Assembly: GCA_943354905.1 (NCBI GenBank)
Contig: CALRDL010000004.1
Location: 1-58,495 of the forward strand
Source of the DNA: Candidatus Nomurabacteria bacterium
GTDB lineage: Bacteria > Patescibacteriota > Minisyncoccia > Phycocordibacterales > UBA9973
DNA: 58,495 nucleotides
Reading direction: 5' to 3'
In this document: positions 28,167 to 39,413 of the stretch, piece by piece
How positions within the stretch are numbered: position 1 is the stretch's first letter
Layout: each line of letters opens with the position of its first letter
Program-made: the position numbers and the translations under genes
Notes under the pieces: generated by a model
The model's database searches: none
What the model saw: only the letters and a program-made list of their open reading frames with translations
What the model was told of the DNA's origin: nothing

Positions 28167-28998
28167 AAAAATACATTTCGTCAATTTTAACTTTGAAATT
28201 TTTCTTTGTTGCCCACCAAGGAAAATCTTTTTGTTTTTTGTATGAATGAAAATGTGTAGCTCCAAAAGTTGGATCAGAAATTTCCCAGCGAAGCACCACC
28301 CCAGCTACCTCATAACATTGAGTCCAGATCAATACGCTTACATTTTTATAAAACGGATCTCTAACTTTGTCTTTAGTATCTTTATTCCAAAAAGAATCAT
28401 ATTGAGACTTTTTAAGAATAACTGCATGAATATTATTACCCCAACTTTTTTTATTTTTTTTCACACGATTGAGCACACTAAAGCCAACACCAATTTTTGC
28501 TTCTTCTTTTTGATTCTCTGCTTCACCAAGTATCATTCTTGCTAATATCATCTGCTCTGTATCATCATTTAAATCCCCAGTCCATTCTGGGTCATCCACA
28601 GAAGGAATTTTTTTTGCTTGTTCTATGACTAAAATTACATTAAAAATAGCAGTGACTTTTCTTAGATTTTTGCGCATTTCTTGAACTTTAATTTTAAATT
28701 TAAAATCTTTTGATTTCTCAGACCCTAGATCAATTTTTATTTGATCATTAATCTGACCAATATCATTAAAAATCAAATCTTTTTCCACCACTTTTATAGA
28801 AATTTTTTCTTCAAATATATTTTTGAGTGTTTCAAATTGCGCGATTTCTTCGTTTATTTCTTTAAGACCATTCGGCTTTATTGATTTATTTAAATTATAA
28901 ACCTTATTTTTTATAGAAATTTCCAGTCGAATATTATGGCCGATAGAATCCCCTAAGTATTCAATGTTCTTAAGTTTTATAGAAATTTTTTTAGACAT
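28150..28998 (-). CDS. cell wall hydrolase, SleB/Hydrolase_2 domain
   Basis: LARMILGEA, VG.SVLNRV, VI....QY, DPT.GATHF. Confidence 0.85.
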   Translation of the reverse strand: MSKKISIKLKNIEYLGDSIGHNIRLEISIKNKVYNLNKSIKPNGLKEINEEIAQFETLKNIFEEKISIKVVEKDLIFNDIGQINDQIKIDLGSEKSKDFKFKIKVQEMRKNLRKVTAIFNVILVIEQAKKIPSVDDPEWTGDLNDDTEQMILARMILGEAENQKEEAKIGVGFSVLNRVKKNKKSWGNNIHAVILKKSQYDSFWNKDTKDKVRDPFYKNVSVLIWTQCYEVAGVVLRWEISDPTFGATHFHSYKKQKDFPWWATKKNFKVKIDEMYFYELKA

Positions 28999-29051
28999 AA
29001 ATTTATTATAACACGAGAGAGAACGAATAAGTTATCCCCAGCTCTTTTAGC

Positions 29052-29089
29052 TACTTTACTTGACTAAAGTACTTTACTTTGCTAAAGTA
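29052..29089 (+). promoter_or_regulatory. sigma70 promoter overlapped by two tandem TACTTTA-N6-TAAAGTA operators
   Basis: TTGACT (29060-65), 17 nt, TGcTAAAGT (-10 at 29083-88); palindromic boxes 29052..29071 and 29070..29089; ATG 6 nt later. Confidence 0.75.
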
Positions 29090-29094
29090 TATAT

Positions 29095-29520
29095 ATGAGT
29101 AAAGGAATGAATAGAAATACAAATATCCGCACAATGAAATTGATCCGAGGAATTGGATCGGTTATCAACTGGAAAGATACTAAAAACAAGCAATTAATTG
29201 CTGGAATTTTAGCATTAAAAAATGCTGACGAAGCCAAGCGTTTTCTACGTGACCTTATGACCGAAAAAGAAATAAAAGAATTTGCGAACAGGCTCGAAGC
29301 CGCAACACTCCTTTCACAAAATGTGCAATACAACACCATCAGCGAAGACACAGGGCTTTCTTCTACTACAATTGCTCGTATTGCTAAATGGTTAGGTGGC
29401 TCGCTTGGTGGATATAGATTAATTTTGAATAGAATCATTCCCTCGAATAAACTCGGGACTTCCTCACGTCAGCATACTGCCTCTTCCAAAATTGGGAAAG
29501 GGTTGTATTTGAGTTCGTAA
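29095..29520 (+). CDS. YerC/YecD (TrpR-like) transcriptional repressor
   Basis: FLRDLMT.KEI.EF.NR, Y..I...TGLSSTTIARIAKWL..S.GGY. Confidence 0.88.
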   Translation: MSKGMNRNTNIRTMKLIRGIGSVINWKDTKNKQLIAGILALKNADEAKRFLRDLMTEKEIKEFANRLEAATLLSQNVQYNTISEDTGLSSTTIARIAKWLGGSLGGYRLILNRIIPSNKLGTSSRQHTASSKIGKGLYLSS

Positions 29521-29539
29521 TAGAAAATTATTTGAAACC

Positions 29540-29569
29540 AACCCCTTCTCAATTTTGAGAAGGGGTTTT
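29540..29569 (+). terminator. intrinsic terminator (candidate attenuator 3:4 hairpin)
   Basis: AACCCCTTCTCAA-TT-TTGAGAAGGGGTT followed by a short T tract. Confidence 0.7.
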
Positions 29570-29635
29570 GCGTTCTACCCAGATACGCTATGGTTACCCA
29601 CTATTTGGGATGAATTGTTCTTCAAAGGAGAAAAA

Positions 29636-30358
29636 ATGTTTGAAAAAATTGAAAAAATCCGGAGAGATGTAACAAAAGCTCTCCGGACGCTTCCAATCGC
29701 GGGCCCAGCAGCTCGCTATGACCTAGAGTACAGCTCTGCGACCGAACTCGCAGAGCTAACCGGAGTGCGGTGCCAATTTGAAGGCACGCATTACTGGTTT
29801 TGGTCGCCAGTACTCGATGAGATCTTTTTGCAGGAATTCGTCATTCCTGACAAAAAGATTATTGATGTCGGTGCCGGAAACGGCGCCTTAATCAAGGAAC
29901 TCATTTCACTCGGATGCCAGCCCGAGTGCCTTTCTGGAGTCGACATCTCCAGGAGGGCAGTGAGCCGAATTAAGGAAACCGGGGCAAGAGCTTTTCACGG
30001 CTCCCTTTCCGGCATCCCAACCGGCGAAAAATGGGATGTTATTTTTCTTTCGTACTTTGTTGATCGTGATAATGACCAACGAGGTACATTTGAAACAGCC
30101 GTCAGAATCCTCGCTGACGGTGGGGTGATAGTCCTCGAAGGGCTATTCCCCTGCGTTCTCCAAGATTCCATGGGTACAAGCTACGGTACCCAAAATGTCA
30201 CCTTCGGTGAAGATGCCGAGGAGGATATTAGACTGGTAACTGCCGAGTTCGCTCGGCTCGGTATGAAACTTCAAAAACGTAACGATGGGGAACGTTATGT
30301 TTACTCGATGGATGGGCCCGAGACCCTACCGTCGAAAACGCTTGTTTTTTCTCGGTAA
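29636..30358 (+). CDS. class I SAM-dependent methyltransferase
   Basis: IIDVGAGNG, GVDIS, WDVIFL, L..GG.IV; AGGAG before ATG 29636; GC-richer than flanks. Confidence 0.85.
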   Translation: MFEKIEKIRRDVTKALRTLPIAGPAARYDLEYSSATELAELTGVRCQFEGTHYWFWSPVLDEIFLQEFVIPDKKIIDVGAGNGALIKELISLGCQPECLSGVDISRRAVSRIKETGARAFHGSLSGIPTGEKWDVIFLSYFVDRDNDQRGTFETAVRILADGGVIVLEGLFPCVLQDSMGTSYGTQNVTFGEDAEEDIRLVTAEFARLGMKLQKRNDGERYVYSMDGPETLPSKTLVFSR

Positions 30359-30366
30359 TCGTCGTG

Positions 30367-30412
30367 GTTGCTCCCTGTAGAATGAAATATGTTTCTGCAG
30401 GGCGCGACTTTA
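30367..30412 (+). terminator. terminator-like hairpin after the methyltransferase
   Basis: GTTGCTCCCTGTAGAA...TTCTGCAGGGCGCGAC-TTT. Confidence 0.5.
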
Positions 30413-30438: not shown

Positions 30439-31158
30439 ATGTATAAAAAATATAGAAAATTAAATCCAAAGATAGACAATAAAAATTGGCAGATATTATT
30501 TACTACCCAATTTCAGAATATGCAAAAATTAAATGCCATAGCAACATTTTGGATAAATGGTTTTTCGAAACTGGGAATTGATAATTCAAGACGACCTAGT
30601 ATAAAAGAAATAAATAAAATATCAGCAAAATATACCGGCTACCGCTATGTGCAAACCAAAATGAATGTAATTATGTCGAAAATTGGTTGGTATGAAATGG
30701 TAGCTCGTTATGAAATGCCTGTGACAAACTTTGTACGCAAACCAAGCGAACTTGACTACTGTGATGAACCCGATAGCTTCCATGAGATAATGGGCCACAT
30801 CGCAATGTATATAGATAAAGAATACTCAGACATGATCCAAACTTTGGCAAAACTATATATAGACGCATATTATGCAAAGCGTGAAGATCTTTTGAAAGAA
30901 ATTGATTTTATAAACGACTATGTGATAGAACTCGGACTTATTAGAGAACCATCTGGAATAAAAGCATTTGGGGCGACATTGTATTCTTCTGGTGAAGTGA
31001 AAGAAGCATTCAAAAAGAAAAATCAAAGAGTTTTGGGAAATAAAATTCCTAATGAGAAAAAGGGGTACGACAGGTCAAAACCACAAGGTAGATATTATAT
31101 TATTGAGTCGATAGATCAAATAAATAAATTACTTGTACAAATACGAAATAGATTCTAA
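30439..31158 (+). CDS. biopterin-dependent aromatic amino acid hydroxylase (divergent PhhA-like)
   Basis: DEPDSFHEIMGH and VIELGL iron ligands, KAFGATLYSSGE; start 30439 preferred. Confidence 0.85.
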   Translation: MYKKYRKLNPKIDNKNWQILFTTQFQNMQKLNAIATFWINGFSKLGIDNSRRPSIKEINKISAKYTGYRYVQTKMNVIMSKIGWYEMVARYEMPVTNFVRKPSELDYCDEPDSFHEIMGHIAMYIDKEYSDMIQTLAKLYIDAYYAKREDLLKEIDFINDYVIELGLIREPSGIKAFGATLYSSGEVKEAFKKKNQRVLGNKIPNEKKGYDRSKPQGRYYIIESIDQINKLLVQIRNRF

Positions 31159-31166
31159 GTATAATT

Positions 31167-31204
31167 CACTTTAGTTTAATAAAGTACTTTACTCTACTAA
31201 AGTA
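31167..31204. promoter_or_regulatory. second tandem YACTTTA-N6-TAAAGTA operator pair
   Basis: CACTTTAGTTTAATAAAGTA and TACTTTACTCTACTAAAGTA, overlapping as at 29052..29089. Confidence 0.6.
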
Positions 31205-31221
31205 GGTTGTTTAAAATTACA

Positions 31222-31845
31222 CTATTCAATAATTAGAACCTCCCCATCTCGTAAAGTTTTATAAGGAATATTATTCTGCTCGCAAAATTCAATTTCTTTA
31301 TCAACACCTGCTGATTCAGGATGATCGGATTTATAATGAGGCATAAATGCAAAATCAACAAATCCCAAACCTTCCCAGACAGTTTCTTTCAATTCTTCAT
31401 ATGGCATTTCTGTAGAATCATCCACAACAGGATAAGCATGCAAGTCTGGAGCAAGCACACATCCAGCTGCGCTATAGCCAGCATATAGAAAATTTTGATT
31501 ATTGTTTTTTAATTCAGTGAGAATTTCATCTAGCCCACTTAATTTCATAGCTTGGCGTAAGACAAAAACATTCCCCCCACTGATAAATATTGCACCAAGC
31601 TCTTCTAACTTATTTTTTAATTCATCTTTTTTATCAAAATAATCTTGTAAGTCTAATAAATAAACTTCTAAACCAAGATCACGCAATAGTTGCATATCTC
31701 TCTCAGCTTTTTCTTTTCTAGTTTTTGAATCAGAACCAGAATGATCTCTGGCGTTAGGAATATATCCTATTTTTTTATTAGGAATTAACTGTTTAAATTT
31801 TTCAACTTCATTCCCTATTCCGTAGGATGATAAATAGAATTTCAT
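31222..31845 (-). CDS. peptidase E-like, S51 family
   Basis: YIPNA, ISGGNVF.L, GYSAAG, GLG.V, PHY. Confidence 0.85.
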   Translation of the reverse strand: MKFYLSSYGIGNEVEKFKQLIPNKKIGYIPNARDHSGSDSKTRKEKAERDMQLLRDLGLEVYLLDLQDYFDKKDELKNKLEELGAIFISGGNVFVLRQAMKLSGLDEILTELKNNNQNFLYAGYSAAGCVLAPDLHAYPVVDDSTEMPYEELKETVWEGLGFVDFAFMPHYKSDHPESAGVDKEIEFCEQNNIPYKTLRDGEVLIIE

Positions 31846-31848
31846 AAA

Positions 31849-32205
31849 TTATATTTTACTCGCACCTACTTTCGCCGCGAGGATAAAATCATTTTCAGAT
31901 AGGCCGCCGATGGCGTGGGTGGAGAGAACGAGCTCAACTTTGTTGTAATGAATCTGAATATCGGGATGATGACCTTCTTGTTCAGCAATATCAGCCACAA
32001 GATTTACAAAATTTATCGCTCCGATAAAATCAGAGAATTTAAATTCTTTGGAAATCTTTTTCGCATCCGCATCTAGTATCCAGCCACCTGCCTGCGCAGG
32101 CAGGCTGACTTCATCTAAATAATCTTGCGCATCTTCTCTCGACAAGGGTTTTATTCCCTTGCCTTCGCAAGCAATACATACTTTTTTTAATAAATCATAA
32201 GACAT
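31849..32205 (-). CDS. phhB: pterin-4-alpha-carbinolamine dehydratase
   Basis: F.F.DF, AEQEGHHPD, STHAIGGLSENDFILAAK; TATAAT 6 nt before ATG 32205. Confidence 0.93.
   Translation of the reverse strand: MSYDLLKKVCIACEGKGIKPLSREDAQDYLDEVSLPAQAGGWILDADAKKISKEFKFSDFIGAINFVNLVADIAEQEGHHPDIQIHYNKVELVLSTHAIGGLSENDFILAAKVGASKI
32087..32104. repeat. 18-bp palindrome CCTGCCTGCGCAGGCAGG, in frame in phhB
   Basis: Perfect copy encoding LPAQAG. Confidence 0.9.
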
Positions 32206-32219
32206 ATTTTTATTATACA

Positions 32220-32936
32220 CTACTTTAACCATTTATCGACTATTTTTTCTAATTGATCTAAGCTATCAAGGACAAAAAGCTTCTTGTGAAATTTATGGGC
32301 ACTGCGATTTATTTTACCAACCATATCAGCATCGTAGGGTAATTTTTCTACTTTTTCAGATAAAGCATTATTTAATTCCCCTTCTGAAGAAATGAGTCCT
32401 GTTCCTAAAACTTTTATCTTGCCTTTCACTTTTAAGAAAGAAAACTCAATCCCATACCACCAGTTATTTGCAATTTTCAATTTATCTTTTTTTGTTTTAG
32501 CTTTTACATACGCCAAGCCAAACTTTTGTACGATTCGAGCATATTTTTTATTCGCTAAAAATGGCAAATGTCCGAAAACATCATGAAAAACATCTGGGAG
32601 TGGCGTATATTCTAAATTTTTCTTTGAACGAATATATTCAGTAACTCGGATTTTTCTTTCAGCTAAACTAGAAATCCACGGACCATCTTCTTCGTATTGG
32701 ACACCAGTGCTTGCAACCTGAAAACCAGTTAGACTTTTTAATTTTATATTGATGGCACGAAAGTTCGGTATAGATCTAGCACTCAACCCTAAAAGTTTCC
32801 AGCCTTGCTTGTGCATAGGATGTGCATAGTTTTTTAAACTTTTTATTCTTCTACCAGCCAAGATACTCCAAACTTCGTGTTCTCTGTTTCGAAACTTTCT
32901 AAAAATACTTTTATTTTTTCTATTTTTTAAGTTCAT
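32220..32936 (-). CDS. phhA: phenylalanine 4-hydroxylase-like enzyme
   Basis: YIR....EYTPLPDVFHDVFGHLPFL, WYGIEF, G.GLISS.GEL; adjacent to phhB. Confidence 0.88.
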   Translation of the reverse strand: MNLKNRKNKSIFRKFRNREHEVWSILAGRRIKSLKNYAHPMHKQGWKLLGLSARSIPNFRAINIKLKSLTGFQVASTGVQYEEDGPWISSLAERKIRVTEYIRSKKNLEYTPLPDVFHDVFGHLPFLANKKYARIVQKFGLAYVKAKTKKDKLKIANNWWYGIEFSFLKVKGKIKVLGTGLISSEGELNNALSEKVEKLPYDADMVGKINRSAHKFHKKLFVLDSLDQLEKIVDKWLK

Positions 32937-37769: not shown

Positions 37770-38801
37770 TTAGCCGATATCCTCCTTCAAACCCACATGG
37801 TAGTTCACGACGCCATTACCACCGTGAACTGGCAGGTTTTTACTTGCCGTTACGGTAAGTTCGGCAAGCTTGCCATTCACAAGATGGACAGCCAGCCGAA
37901 TGAATCTGTCAGCATCTGCGAGTGGGAAGGTTTTTTGCTTTACATACTTCTGGACTACAGTTTCCTTCCCGATGGCATCGAAGTATACCCCTTTTGCCCC
38001 TGAAGAAAATACCTCTTTGGTTACGAACGGACCGTTGTAGGTCGGAGGGATGAACTTTTTCAATTCATCCAACTCCTCACTACTCATTGACCCATAGTTC
38101 TTAAAGAGATACTGATCAAGAAAAGGCAAAGCCATAACTGCCTTGCTTCCCAAGCCGTGACGAGGTGGGTTTATAAAACTATCAGGCCTCTCTTTCCAGC
38201 GAGAAAGAAGCATCCGAGATGCCTTTTCCCCGCAGAGTGGAAAGTCGAGAAAGATTCCATTCTCAGGAAACTTTTGTGCTTCGAGTTGTTCCTCTGAAAA
38301 CACCTTGACTCTTCGGCCAGTGAATTCCGTAAGCTTTTGAGCAAAATACTTCTGCTCGCGAGCGTAAAAACTTTCTTTACGTCCAAGAAAGATGTGAACG
38401 TCATCTGTAACGTACTGGGCGAGTAAAGTGAGCAACTTTTGACGTTCTCCTGCCCCACTTTCGTTGCGACAAGCGAGCGCAAAACCGAGACCATGCTTGT
38501 TGGAAGGATCAATTTCTGCGATCTTCCAATTACCATCCTTGTCAGCCATCACATCCACCCTTACCAACCTCGGAGGGATATGCAGGTGGGTAGTCCCAGC
38601 CTCCAGATAGGTTTCGTTAAGAGTTGCTGAGAGAGACTTGAGCAAAAATCCATCCTGAACTTCAGTGGTAGCGATGAGGAATTTGTTCACCAATTCCCCC
38701 ATTCTAGCCAATTTTACCAGATCCTCTCGAGTAATCCTAAACAAATGCTCATCCAAGATGAACTCATGGGGTTTAGAAACCAAATAATCCAAGTTTTTCA
38801 T
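37770..38801 (-). CDS. circularly permuted ATP-grasp ligase-like protein (GSP synthase/CP_ATPgrasp-like)
   Basis: VRVDV...WKIAEID near the N-terminus; SKA, FVTKEVFSSGAKGV, VVQKYV near the C-terminus; GC-richer, strong SD. Confidence 0.6.
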   Translation of the reverse strand: MKNLDYLVSKPHEFILDEHLFRITREDLVKLARMGELVNKFLIATTEVQDGFLLKSLSATLNETYLEAGTTHLHIPPRLVRVDVMADKDGNWKIAEIDPSNKHGLGFALACRNESGAGERQKLLTLLAQYVTDDVHIFLGRKESFYAREQKYFAQKLTEFTGRRVKVFSEEQLEAQKFPENGIFLDFPLCGEKASRMLLSRWKERPDSFINPPRHGLGSKAVMALPFLDQYLFKNYGSMSSEELDELKKFIPPTYNGPFVTKEVFSSGAKGVYFDAIGKETVVQKYVKQKTFPLADADRFIRLAVHLVNGKLAELTVTASKNLPVHGGNGVVNYHVGLKEDIG

Positions 38802-38917
38802 TATTAACCCCCTCCCAGAGGCTTTTCAAAGAACAATCTTTCCGTTTCCTCTAGGAAACAAAGAACGGCGCTCTTGCGCCGGTTAATGGATTCCTTGTTT
38901 TTAGGTAGAAAAAGAAA

Positions 38918-39001
38918 TCAACAGAACAGCGCAAAAGCCTTGTGCTCTACGCTCCACCAAGAATTTAATATTAATTTGTTTATTTTTAACTTATTCTTCA
39001 T
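38918..39001 (-). CDS. Trp-Trp attenuator leader peptide (MKNKLKINKLILNSWWSVEHKAFALFC)
   Basis: 27-aa ORF with tandem TGG TGG between the Trp operator and the ATP-grasp gene, downstream of trpR. Confidence 0.7.
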   Translation of the reverse strand: MKNKLKINKLILNSWWSVEHKAFALFC

Positions 39002-39022
39002 ATTTTTATAAATTCATACAAA

Positions 39023-39058
39023 ATACTCTTGTATCTATGTACTAGTACATGATAACAT
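39023..39058 (-). promoter_or_regulatory. extended -10 promoter plus TrpR-like operator
   Basis: Minus strand TGTTATCAT-GTACTAGTACATAGATACAAGAGTAT; a 20-bp identical copy lies at 55135..55154. Confidence 0.65.
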
Positions 39059-39116
39059 AAACCAAAATAAAATGCAAGTATTTTATTAGAGTAATGTGAA
39101 AAACTACTTTTAAGCC

Positions 39117-39413
39117 TTATTTTCCGAACTTTTTTAGCATTTGGTGAAATCCACCATCCTTATTTCGAAGCATTCGAGATCCGCGCGTGACAGTACTGAT
39201 GCCCAGACCCAAATCCCCTGCTACAGATCTATGAGTCTCTTTGTTATTTAATTTCTTTATTATTTGCCAACGCAATGCCAAATTTTCAATCTCATTTGGA
39301 GTAAACATATCTTTTAGAAAAAGTGCGATAAAATCTTTATCTGAATTTAATTTGGAAAAAACTTCTAATAATTCTTTTTTATATTCCGAAATTTTTTTAT
39401 TTATGTGTTTCAT
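39117..39413 (-). CDS. trpR: Trp repressor family protein
   Basis: FL.D.FTPNE......RWQIIK.L, R.VA.DLG.GISTVTRGSR.L; near trpS. Confidence 0.85.
   Translation of the reverse strand: MKHINKKISEYKKELLEVFSKLNSDKDFIALFLKDMFTPNEIENLALRWQIIKKLNNKETHRSVAGDLGLGISTVTRGSRMLRNKDGGFHQMLKKFGK

Follow-up and report, generated by a model that had tools for sequence, protein, structure and literature searches.

The histidine repressor gene hisR of a Patescibacteria genome as the probable leader of its own attenuator

In 58,495 nt of contig sequence from a Candidatus Nomurabacteria genome (below, "the window" is this whole stretch of DNA), the 3' end of the repressor gene hisR probably works as a ribosome-mediated histidine attenuator, the leader peptide of which would be the C-terminal extension of about 27 codons of hisR itself. 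The initial annotation had proposed that repression and attenuation are united in one gene. This proposal is backed by the covariation between the antiterminator strands (segments 2 and 3), by the runs of His codons in related loci and by the operators in front of the gene. The coordinates of all features are listed in Table 1.

Table 1. Features of the hisR unit and of the trp-type locus in the window
Feature	Position	Strand	Basis or remark
Two tandem HisR-type operators, TACTTTAC-N4-CTAAAGTA, 18-bp register	29052-29071 and 29070-29089	+	fit the published HisR consensus
hisR (YerC/YecD, TrpR-family repressor)	29095-29520	+	141 codons, then TAA; Pfam PF01371, NCBIfam TIGR02531
Sole His codon (CAT) of the hisR tail	29473-29475	+	aligns with the HH/HHH run of relatives (40-locus alignment); ends 14 nt before the antiterminator helix
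Segment 1, upstream strand of the weak hairpin 1:2, which may act as anti-antiterminator or for pausing	29479-29487	+	fold -9.3 kcal/mol, z -1.9
Segment 2, putative antiterminator strand in codons K-I-G-K-G-L	29487-29505	+	can pair with segment 1 or segment 3
Stop codon TAA of hisR, then in-frame TAG	29518-29520	+	12 nt past segment 2, 19 nt ahead of the terminator stem
Segment 3, terminator 5' arm and loop	29539-29557	+	complementary to segment 2
Predicted intrinsic terminator: 13-bp perfect stem 29540-29552 / 29555-29567, then TTTTGCGTT	29540-29571	+	-20.1 kcal/mol
Conserved structured spacer	29570-29631	+	P1 29570-29574 / 29584-29588; P2 29590-29594 / 29600-29604
Class I SAM-dependent methyltransferase, first gated gene	29636-30358	+	Pfam Methyltransf_23/31/25/11
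Pterin-dependent aromatic amino acid hydroxylase-like, second gated gene	30439-31158	+	PF00351, E 3e-19
343-aa gene, no known family	37770-38801	-	after the trp-type terminator
Predicted trp-type terminator, stem 38867-38880	within 38850-39413	-	in the MFE structure its 5' arm is bound to the last codons of the leader
Free 27-codon leader ORF with tandem Trp codons	38918-39001	-	after the palindrome
Palindrome ATGTACTAGTACAT after the TrpR paralog	39037-39050	-	ahead of the free leader ORF
TrpR-family paralog	39117-39413	-	PF01371, E 7.6e-18

The hisR gene, its operators and the folds at its 3' end

The product of hisR (141 residues) matches the Trp_repressor family PF01371 with E 2.5e-16 over residues 32-113 and the NCBIfam model TIGR02531 (YerC/YecD) with 65.3 bits at a cut-off of 42.2. 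Together with the two HisR-type operators over the promoter, these matches uphold the initial annotation of 29095-29520 as a gene for a YerC-like repressor. According to a study of Firmicutes regulons (Ashniev et al. 2022, PMC9413887), YerC of Bacillus subtilis is HisR, a histidine repressor of the TrpR family, histidine was reported as co-repressor for HisR of Ruminococcus gnavus, and HisR proteins of Firmicutes are shorter than 100 aa. In the product described here, the helical domain comprises residues about 11-114 and is followed by a C-terminal extension of about 27 residues (about 115-141), which is absent in the Firmicutes proteins of that study. This tail is predicted to be disordered: in an AlphaFold2 model the last helix ends at residue 114, and residues 122-141 have a pLDDT of about 40 and no secondary structure. 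The tail peptide reads ..S-R-Q-H-T-A-S-S-K-I-G-K-G-L.., the codons CGT CAG CAT being located at 29467-29475, and the gene ends with TCG TAA.

The predicted HisR operators over the hisR promoter would add a second control on the unit. They form a direct repeat (29052-29069 / 29070-29087) and correspond to the consensus cacTTTAnnnnnnTAAAgtg, a 20-bp palindrome of the form cacTTTA-N6-TAAAgtg, as given in PMC9413887. The core CTTTA-N6-TAAAG has four matches in the window, while 0.24 are expected, and in most related loci a tandem operator pair sits just 5' of hisR. A promoter scan detected the promoter-like site TTGACT-17-TAAAGT (-35 at 29060-29065, -10 at 29083-29088), which is overlapped by the operators. 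The -10-like hexamer ends only 6 nt ahead of the start codon, with no ribosome-binding site seen in this gap, and hisR may therefore be transcribed with a very short 5' leader or none at all.

A further tandem pair of HisR-type operators was found at 31169-31202, 10 nt past the stop codon of the hydroxylase-like gene. It faces the end of a convergent S51 peptidase gene, and a promoter-like site at 31188-31217 is directed into the antisense strand of the latter. In the related locus L043 an operator pair likewise follows the third gene, so that a three-gene unit is bracketed by operator pairs.

At the 3' end of hisR, the three strands named in the initial annotation are present: CCTCTTCCAA at 29480-29489, AAAATTGGGAAAGGGTTG at 29488-29505 and CAACCCCTTCTCAATTTT at 29539-29556. 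The complementarity that it had noted between segments 2 and 3 holds at these coordinates. An inverted-repeat search returned the arms 29487-29505 and 29539-29557, which are complementary at 17 of 19 nt (89%), and the comparative counts given below place this pairing beyond chance. The arms of the terminator are 100% complementary over 13 nt and the stem begins 19 nt past the hisR stop; its U tract is short (TTTT, then GCGTT). The terminator folded alone has a z-score of -5.2, and the 2:3 structure reaches -25.5 kcal/mol (z -4.9). The 1:2 hairpin, which was equalled or surpassed by 10 of 200 shuffles, is by itself weak in the window. When the whole region 29460-29575 was folded, as the initial annotation had suggested, the MFE structure was a single long hairpin composed of 1:4 and 2:3, with -41.8 kcal/mol and a z-score of -6.1 (0 of 200 shuffles as good).

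A search of the 750-kb genome for the terminator pattern CCCCTTC-N3-14-GAAGGGG returned a single site, which counts on either strand as the pattern is a palindrome; the reversed control also gave one match per strand. An Rfam scan of 28900-29800 revealed no family at the gathering threshold; rli38 scored 27.3 bits against a threshold of 49, and PyrR 23 against 54. In contigs from four lake-water runs, no differing letters were found over 29000-29700, and a search for RNA runs that contain 29000-30400 returned none.

Pairings and histidine codons in related loci

The initial annotation had proposed aligning homologous 3' ends in search of His runs and compensatory changes. Both were found: homologous tails carry runs of His codons, and compensatory changes preserve the 2:3 pairing, so that the outcome named there as a refutation did not occur. 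In a MAFFT alignment of hisR 3' ends from 40 loci, whose related sequences are not independent of each other, 93.8% of the cells of the antiterminator helix 2:3 (columns 45-60 with 110-125) are paired, and 10 of its 15 pairs have changed on both sides (57 cells), which was reached in none of 500 shuffles. When the partner strand was slid by 1-3 columns, at most 58.6% of the cells were paired, with at most four double-changed pairs. Pairs 46:124 and 45:125, which lie within the terminator loop in many sequences, covary with segment 2, and thus the 2:3 signal is not a shadow of the terminator stem. The terminator 3:4 is paired in 96.2% of the cells in the 40 loci, with compensatory changes in 9 of 13 pairs. 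Cognate 2:3 duplexes have a mean energy of -18.9 kcal/mol, in comparison to -15.0 kcal/mol for non-cognate ones, and none of 10,000 permutations gave a value as low.

The 1:2 pairing of the initial annotation had to be corrected in its register. In the 40 loci the hairpin has a mean energy of -9.8 versus -5.0 in shuffles (mean z -2.44, with 26 of the 40 below -2), and in a family-wide register that starts inside the last His codon, 80.9% of the cells are paired versus at most 54% when slid; covariation in this register was not significant. The register read from the window alone was rejected, its covariation in the 40 loci being at shuffle level. The hairpin, probably conserved, is thus supported by energy without significant covariation, and in a register different from the one first suggested. 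Long-range pairing was part of the MFE structure in 6 of 11 folded loci (L001, L003, L004, L006, L007 and L010).

Among the 120 best homologs, all of them from Patescibacteria where named, the tail follows the pattern ..N-H-H-H-N-S-S-K-L-[G/R]-K-G-L-S-L-S-S. The longest His run has three residues in 33 proteins, two in 56 and one in 28, while three proteins with short tails have none; for comparison, His accounts for 1.6% of the residues in the window's genes. To this survey 10 loci of the same genus or order and 54 loci from named genome records were added at the DNA level, 59 of which were distinct and extended at least 120 nt past the stop. We called a terminator strong if it had a hairpin of -12 kcal/mol or lower with Ts behind it and lay no more than 45 nt from the stop codon. 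Such a terminator is present in 46 of the 59 loci. The tail contains His in every one of these, and at least two consecutive His in 38 (the automatic counts were 44 and 36, and L011 and L070 were added by reading the sequences). The tails without His (L009, L039, L072) have no strong terminator near the stop. The remaining loci comprise five with weaker hairpins, L048 with HHH and no nearby hairpin, and L058 and three remote homologs, which are uninformative.

The distance from the last His codon to the first base of the 2:3 helix is 11 nt in 27 of the 40 loci, 14 nt in eight including the window, 5 nt in four and 17 nt in one. The stop codon follows segment 2 after 12 nt in 24 loci, the window among them, after 3 nt in 11 and after 9 nt in five. 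Within the tail codons there is evidently selection at the nucleotide level. In segment 2, GGG is used for the second Gly in 36 of 38 cases and for the first Gly in 17 of 18, compared with 14% of the Gly codons in the window's genes; Leu is encoded by TTG in 33 cases and by TTA in four (background 18% and 31%), and Arg by AGG or CGG in 19 of 19, never by AGA, the commonest Arg codon.

The window's copy has only one His codon, and the initial annotation had regarded CGT CAG as degenerated His codons of a decaying sensor. The first part of this claim has to be given up, because R-Q also precedes the intact runs in the closest relatives, which read RQHH or RQHHH. In line with the second part, no His follows CAT in the window; a single His is, however, conserved across a whole subclade, and decay of the run in the window's copy is therefore possible but not established. 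A link between the length of the His run and the presence of his genes was also considered and rejected, since four relatives without HisG and HisI (G020, G030, G032, G039) keep HH or HHH.

When 151 genomes of the order were searched with a covariance model of the tail-terminator module, nine of them had a match, at one site each. In five genomes (G000, G039, G099, G142, G178) this site is the 3' end of hisR, and two matches (G070, G076) are weak. In G079 the module stands alone (L083, 981-1160; 78.5 bits): a promoter-like sequence is followed by a 22-codon ORF with HH, MNNGLQKSIHHRNSTKLGEGLS, then by the terminator and directly by hisE (PRA-PH, E 4.7e-19). With the hisR query used here, no hisR was found in G079. 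A free 11-codon version with one His is present in G125 (L084, 1408-1533, minus strand). These free leaders suggest that either a leader became fused to hisR or the HisR domain was lost.

The genes behind the terminator

The promoter scan found no promoter-like site on the plus strand between 29373 and 30843. The methyltransferase gene and the hydroxylase-like gene would thus depend on readthrough of the terminator. In L043 the corresponding position behind hisR is taken by a gene whose product shares 50% identity with the methyltransferase (E 2e-79); there, a HalD-like oxygenase gene comes next. The hydroxylase-like product scored 127 bits against the NCBIfam model of phenylalanine 4-monooxygenase, which is below the cut-off of 247. 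We also observed that two pterin-dependent hydroxylase-like genes, a pterin-4a-carbinolamine dehydratase gene and the S51 peptidase gene are clustered here (30439-31158 and, on the minus strand, 31222-32936). At least ten of the scanned related loci also have a pterin-4a-carbinolamine dehydratase gene in the neighbourhood of hisR.

The spacer between terminator and methyltransferase gene is a conserved structured element of its own. Its P1 hairpin begins in the T tract, a pseudoknot is predicted between loop and 3' side (29596-29599 with 29607-29610), and the conserved TTGTTCTTCAAAGGAG (29616-29631) holds the ribosome-binding site of the methyltransferase gene. In an alignment of 10 loci, 88.2% of the cells are paired and 6 of 14 pairs are compensatory; one of 500 shuffles scored as high, and slid controls stayed at or below 49%. 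The spacer model matches 29564-29640 in the window and, in about 12 loci, a site behind the terminator of hisR; extra copies precede later genes in L050 and L052, and the inspected copy in L052 has no terminator ahead of it. No match to the spacer was found in Rfam. We rejected the possibility that the conserved TTGTTCTTTGAAAGGAG ahead of the next gene is the usual ribosome-binding context of this genome, which contains two near matches versus four for the reversed control; in the window there is one match with three mismatches, no more than expected by chance (44 of 100 shuffles have at least one).

For relatives, 114 ORFs in 61 loci were surveyed (at most the first two ORFs of at least 80 aa starting within 1.6 kb past the stop). 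HisI, HisG or HisRS is encoded downstream in 8 of 46 attenuator loci: HisI in L002, L003 and L028, HisG in L040, L057 and L070 and as the second gene in L034, and HisRS in L008. PRPP synthetase is found downstream in two further loci (L026 and L037). The other downstream genes encode SLOG/LOG proteins, HAD hydrolases, GNATs, a radical-SAM-like protein, alanine racemase or a methyltransferase, and many are familyless ORFs, 18 of which gave nothing in NCBIfam or Pfam.

The his genes themselves are scarce in this group. HisI was detected in four and HisG in two of 61 sampled relatives (the set G001-G060), and HisI in 3 of 36 sampled genomes of the same genus, downstream of hisR in all three. The genes hisR and hisI are adjacent in G026 and G013, and the order in G031 is hisR-hisS-hisG-hisI. 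Since HisR is a histidine repressor, his genes in its vicinity are expected anyway, and this linkage therefore supports the histidine theme but is not independent proof of codon sensing. In the genome of the window, which is 96% complete, HisG and HisI were not found, and HisRS is encoded on another contig. The hisR-attenuator arrangement with HH or HHH is also kept in relatives without detected HisG or HisI.

Proposed switch, alternatives and related systems

We propose the following mechanism, in which the stalling, timing and pausing steps are inferred from the anatomy of the locus. Transcription of hisR would start at the promoter under the two HisR operators and would be repressed by HisR in response to free histidine. 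The ribosome translating the tail would then reach the His codons immediately ahead of segment 1. If charged His-tRNA is scarce, it would stall there. The footprint of a bacterial ribosome usually extends about 12 nt downstream of the first base in the A site; given the spacing of the His codons, the waiting ribosome would hide segment 1 and reach just to the border of segment 2, as in classic attenuators. Segment 2 would then be free to pair with the 5' arm and the loop of the terminator, resulting in readthrough into the downstream genes. If charged His-tRNA is plentiful, the ribosome would pass segment 2 and proceed to the stop codon, segment 2 would be occupied or refolded with segment 1, and the 3:4 terminator would form, leaving the hisR mRNA as the sole product. 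With the stop codon 12 nt past segment 2, a ribosome at the stop would cover just the last few bases of this segment; termination in the 24 of 40 loci with this distance would thus rely on timing or on refolding into 1:2. Stalling would also delay the release of HisR, so that both sensors would act in one direction. Such a switch would imply coupling between transcription and translation over 141 codons.

For the window's copy, sensing by a codon run is doubtful, as there is one His codon. All RNA parts are intact, but with this single codon and with gated genes that are not his genes, the copy may be a weakened histidine sensor or mainly a sensor of the translation of its tail. A sensor of translation status without specificity for histidine seems unlikely as the general explanation, although it is the alternative that best withstands the data. 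It would mean that any delay in the tail allows 2:3 to form, and that His was kept for a reason at the level of the protein, such as binding of a ligand or metal or protein turnover. The single His in the window and across a whole subclade would fit this explanation, as would the wide variation of the gated genes (HAD hydrolases, SLOG/LOG proteins, GNATs, the methyltransferase and familyless proteins) and the conservation of the tail also as a peptide (..SKLGKGLSLSS). However, it does not account for the fixed distance of the His codons from the helix, nor for the free 22-codon leader of G079, which keeps HH without a HisR domain; the HisR tail is moreover predicted to be disordered, and the conservation of K-L-G-K-G-L as a peptide is explained by the RNA pairing together with the fixed silent sites.

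We consider it highly improbable that the terminator is an ordinary one, and that the extended 1:4 and 2:3 hairpin serves the stability of the hisR mRNA 3' end or its processing by an RNase III-type enzyme, with no decision on readthrough. The long hairpin that is the MFE structure of 29460-29575 (-41.8 kcal/mol) and the long-range pairing in 6 of 11 folded loci agree with such a role, but it leaves unexplained the His run and its spacing, the joint loss of tail and terminator, the occurrence of a free leader ORF ahead of hisE and the absence of a promoter-like site ahead of the downstream genes. The possibility that coding tail and neighbouring terminator are complementary by mere chance, for which nothing but the low complexity of the G-rich and C/T-rich strings speaks, is practically eliminated by 0 of 500 shuffles, 0 of 10,000 permutations and compensatory changes that extend into the terminator loop.

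The histidine attenuator thus preferred resembles hisL of Enterobacteria in that the translated leader contains His codons, the antiterminator and terminator hairpins exclude each other and, in relatives of the genome studied here, his genes lie downstream. In contrast to hisL, which is a free short ORF with a run of seven His codons, the putative leader is the end of a 141-codon regulator gene and has one to three His codons; the short free-standing leader ORF that is typical for this class is absent in the window. The Rfam family His_leader (RF00514) had no match over 28900-29800 even at E values up to 10.

There is also a likeness to the trp system of Escherichia coli, in which a TrpR-family repressor responding to the free amino acid and a leader responding to the charged tRNA act on one unit. 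There, trpR lies apart at another locus and the 14-codon ORF trpL stands free, while repressor and leader share one reading frame in hisR. A trp-like version in the window has a free leader with two Trp codons (WW). This leader and its terminator beside a TrpR paralog (Table 1) suggest that the organism also employs ordinary leader-peptide attenuation that is built in this way. In the pyr operon of B. subtilis, intercistronic attenuators follow pyrR and are set by the binding of PyrR to RNA. The position of terminator and antiterminator directly behind a regulator gene is the same, but the setting agent is a protein there, whereas a ribosome is proposed here.

Closest in the regulator itself are the HisR systems of Firmicutes, for which regulons and predicted His attenuators were described by Ashniev et al. 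(PMC9413887) in the one systematic study of HisR known to us; the repressor family and the operator consensus are shared. According to that paper, the regulated operon starts with hisR in some phyla, the predicted leaders of Firmicutes have three to five His codons, and His attenuators were found only in groups without hisR. Thus attenuator and hisR belong to separate groups there, while they are joined in one gene here. Patescibacteria are mentioned nowhere in the text of PMC9413887. A full-text literature search within a part of PubMed Central returned no paper on a fused hisR-attenuator.

What would be new here is that the leader of an otherwise classic attenuator is supplied by the repressor gene of the pathway itself. 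Leader-peptide attenuation and repression by TrpR-family proteins are textbook devices that were so far treated as separate parts, and the hisR locus suggests that the role of an attenuator leader can be taken by a normal protein-coding gene. The result would be a compact switch with two sensors, for free histidine and for charged tRNA, in genomes of about 0.75 Mb.

More tentatively, and with considerable reservation, the operators, hisR, the His tail, the antiterminator/terminator and the pseudoknotted leader may be seen as a portable cassette of Patescibacteria, which gives an adjoining gene double control by histidine and was re-used for non-his enzymes where hisG and hisI are not found. 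If this is true, enzymes outside the his pathway would be tied to the supply of histidine obtained externally, and the cassette would gate the pairing of a methyltransferase with an oxygenase, which recurs in L043. As the sensor codons lie in the repressor's own frame, histidine hunger would in addition slow the completion of the repressor; we know of no attenuator in which hunger slows the completion of the repressor itself in this way. The proposed switch would imply close coupling of transcription and translation for the phylum, and it offers a handle on the function of many unknown gated genes in uncultured ultrasmall bacteria.
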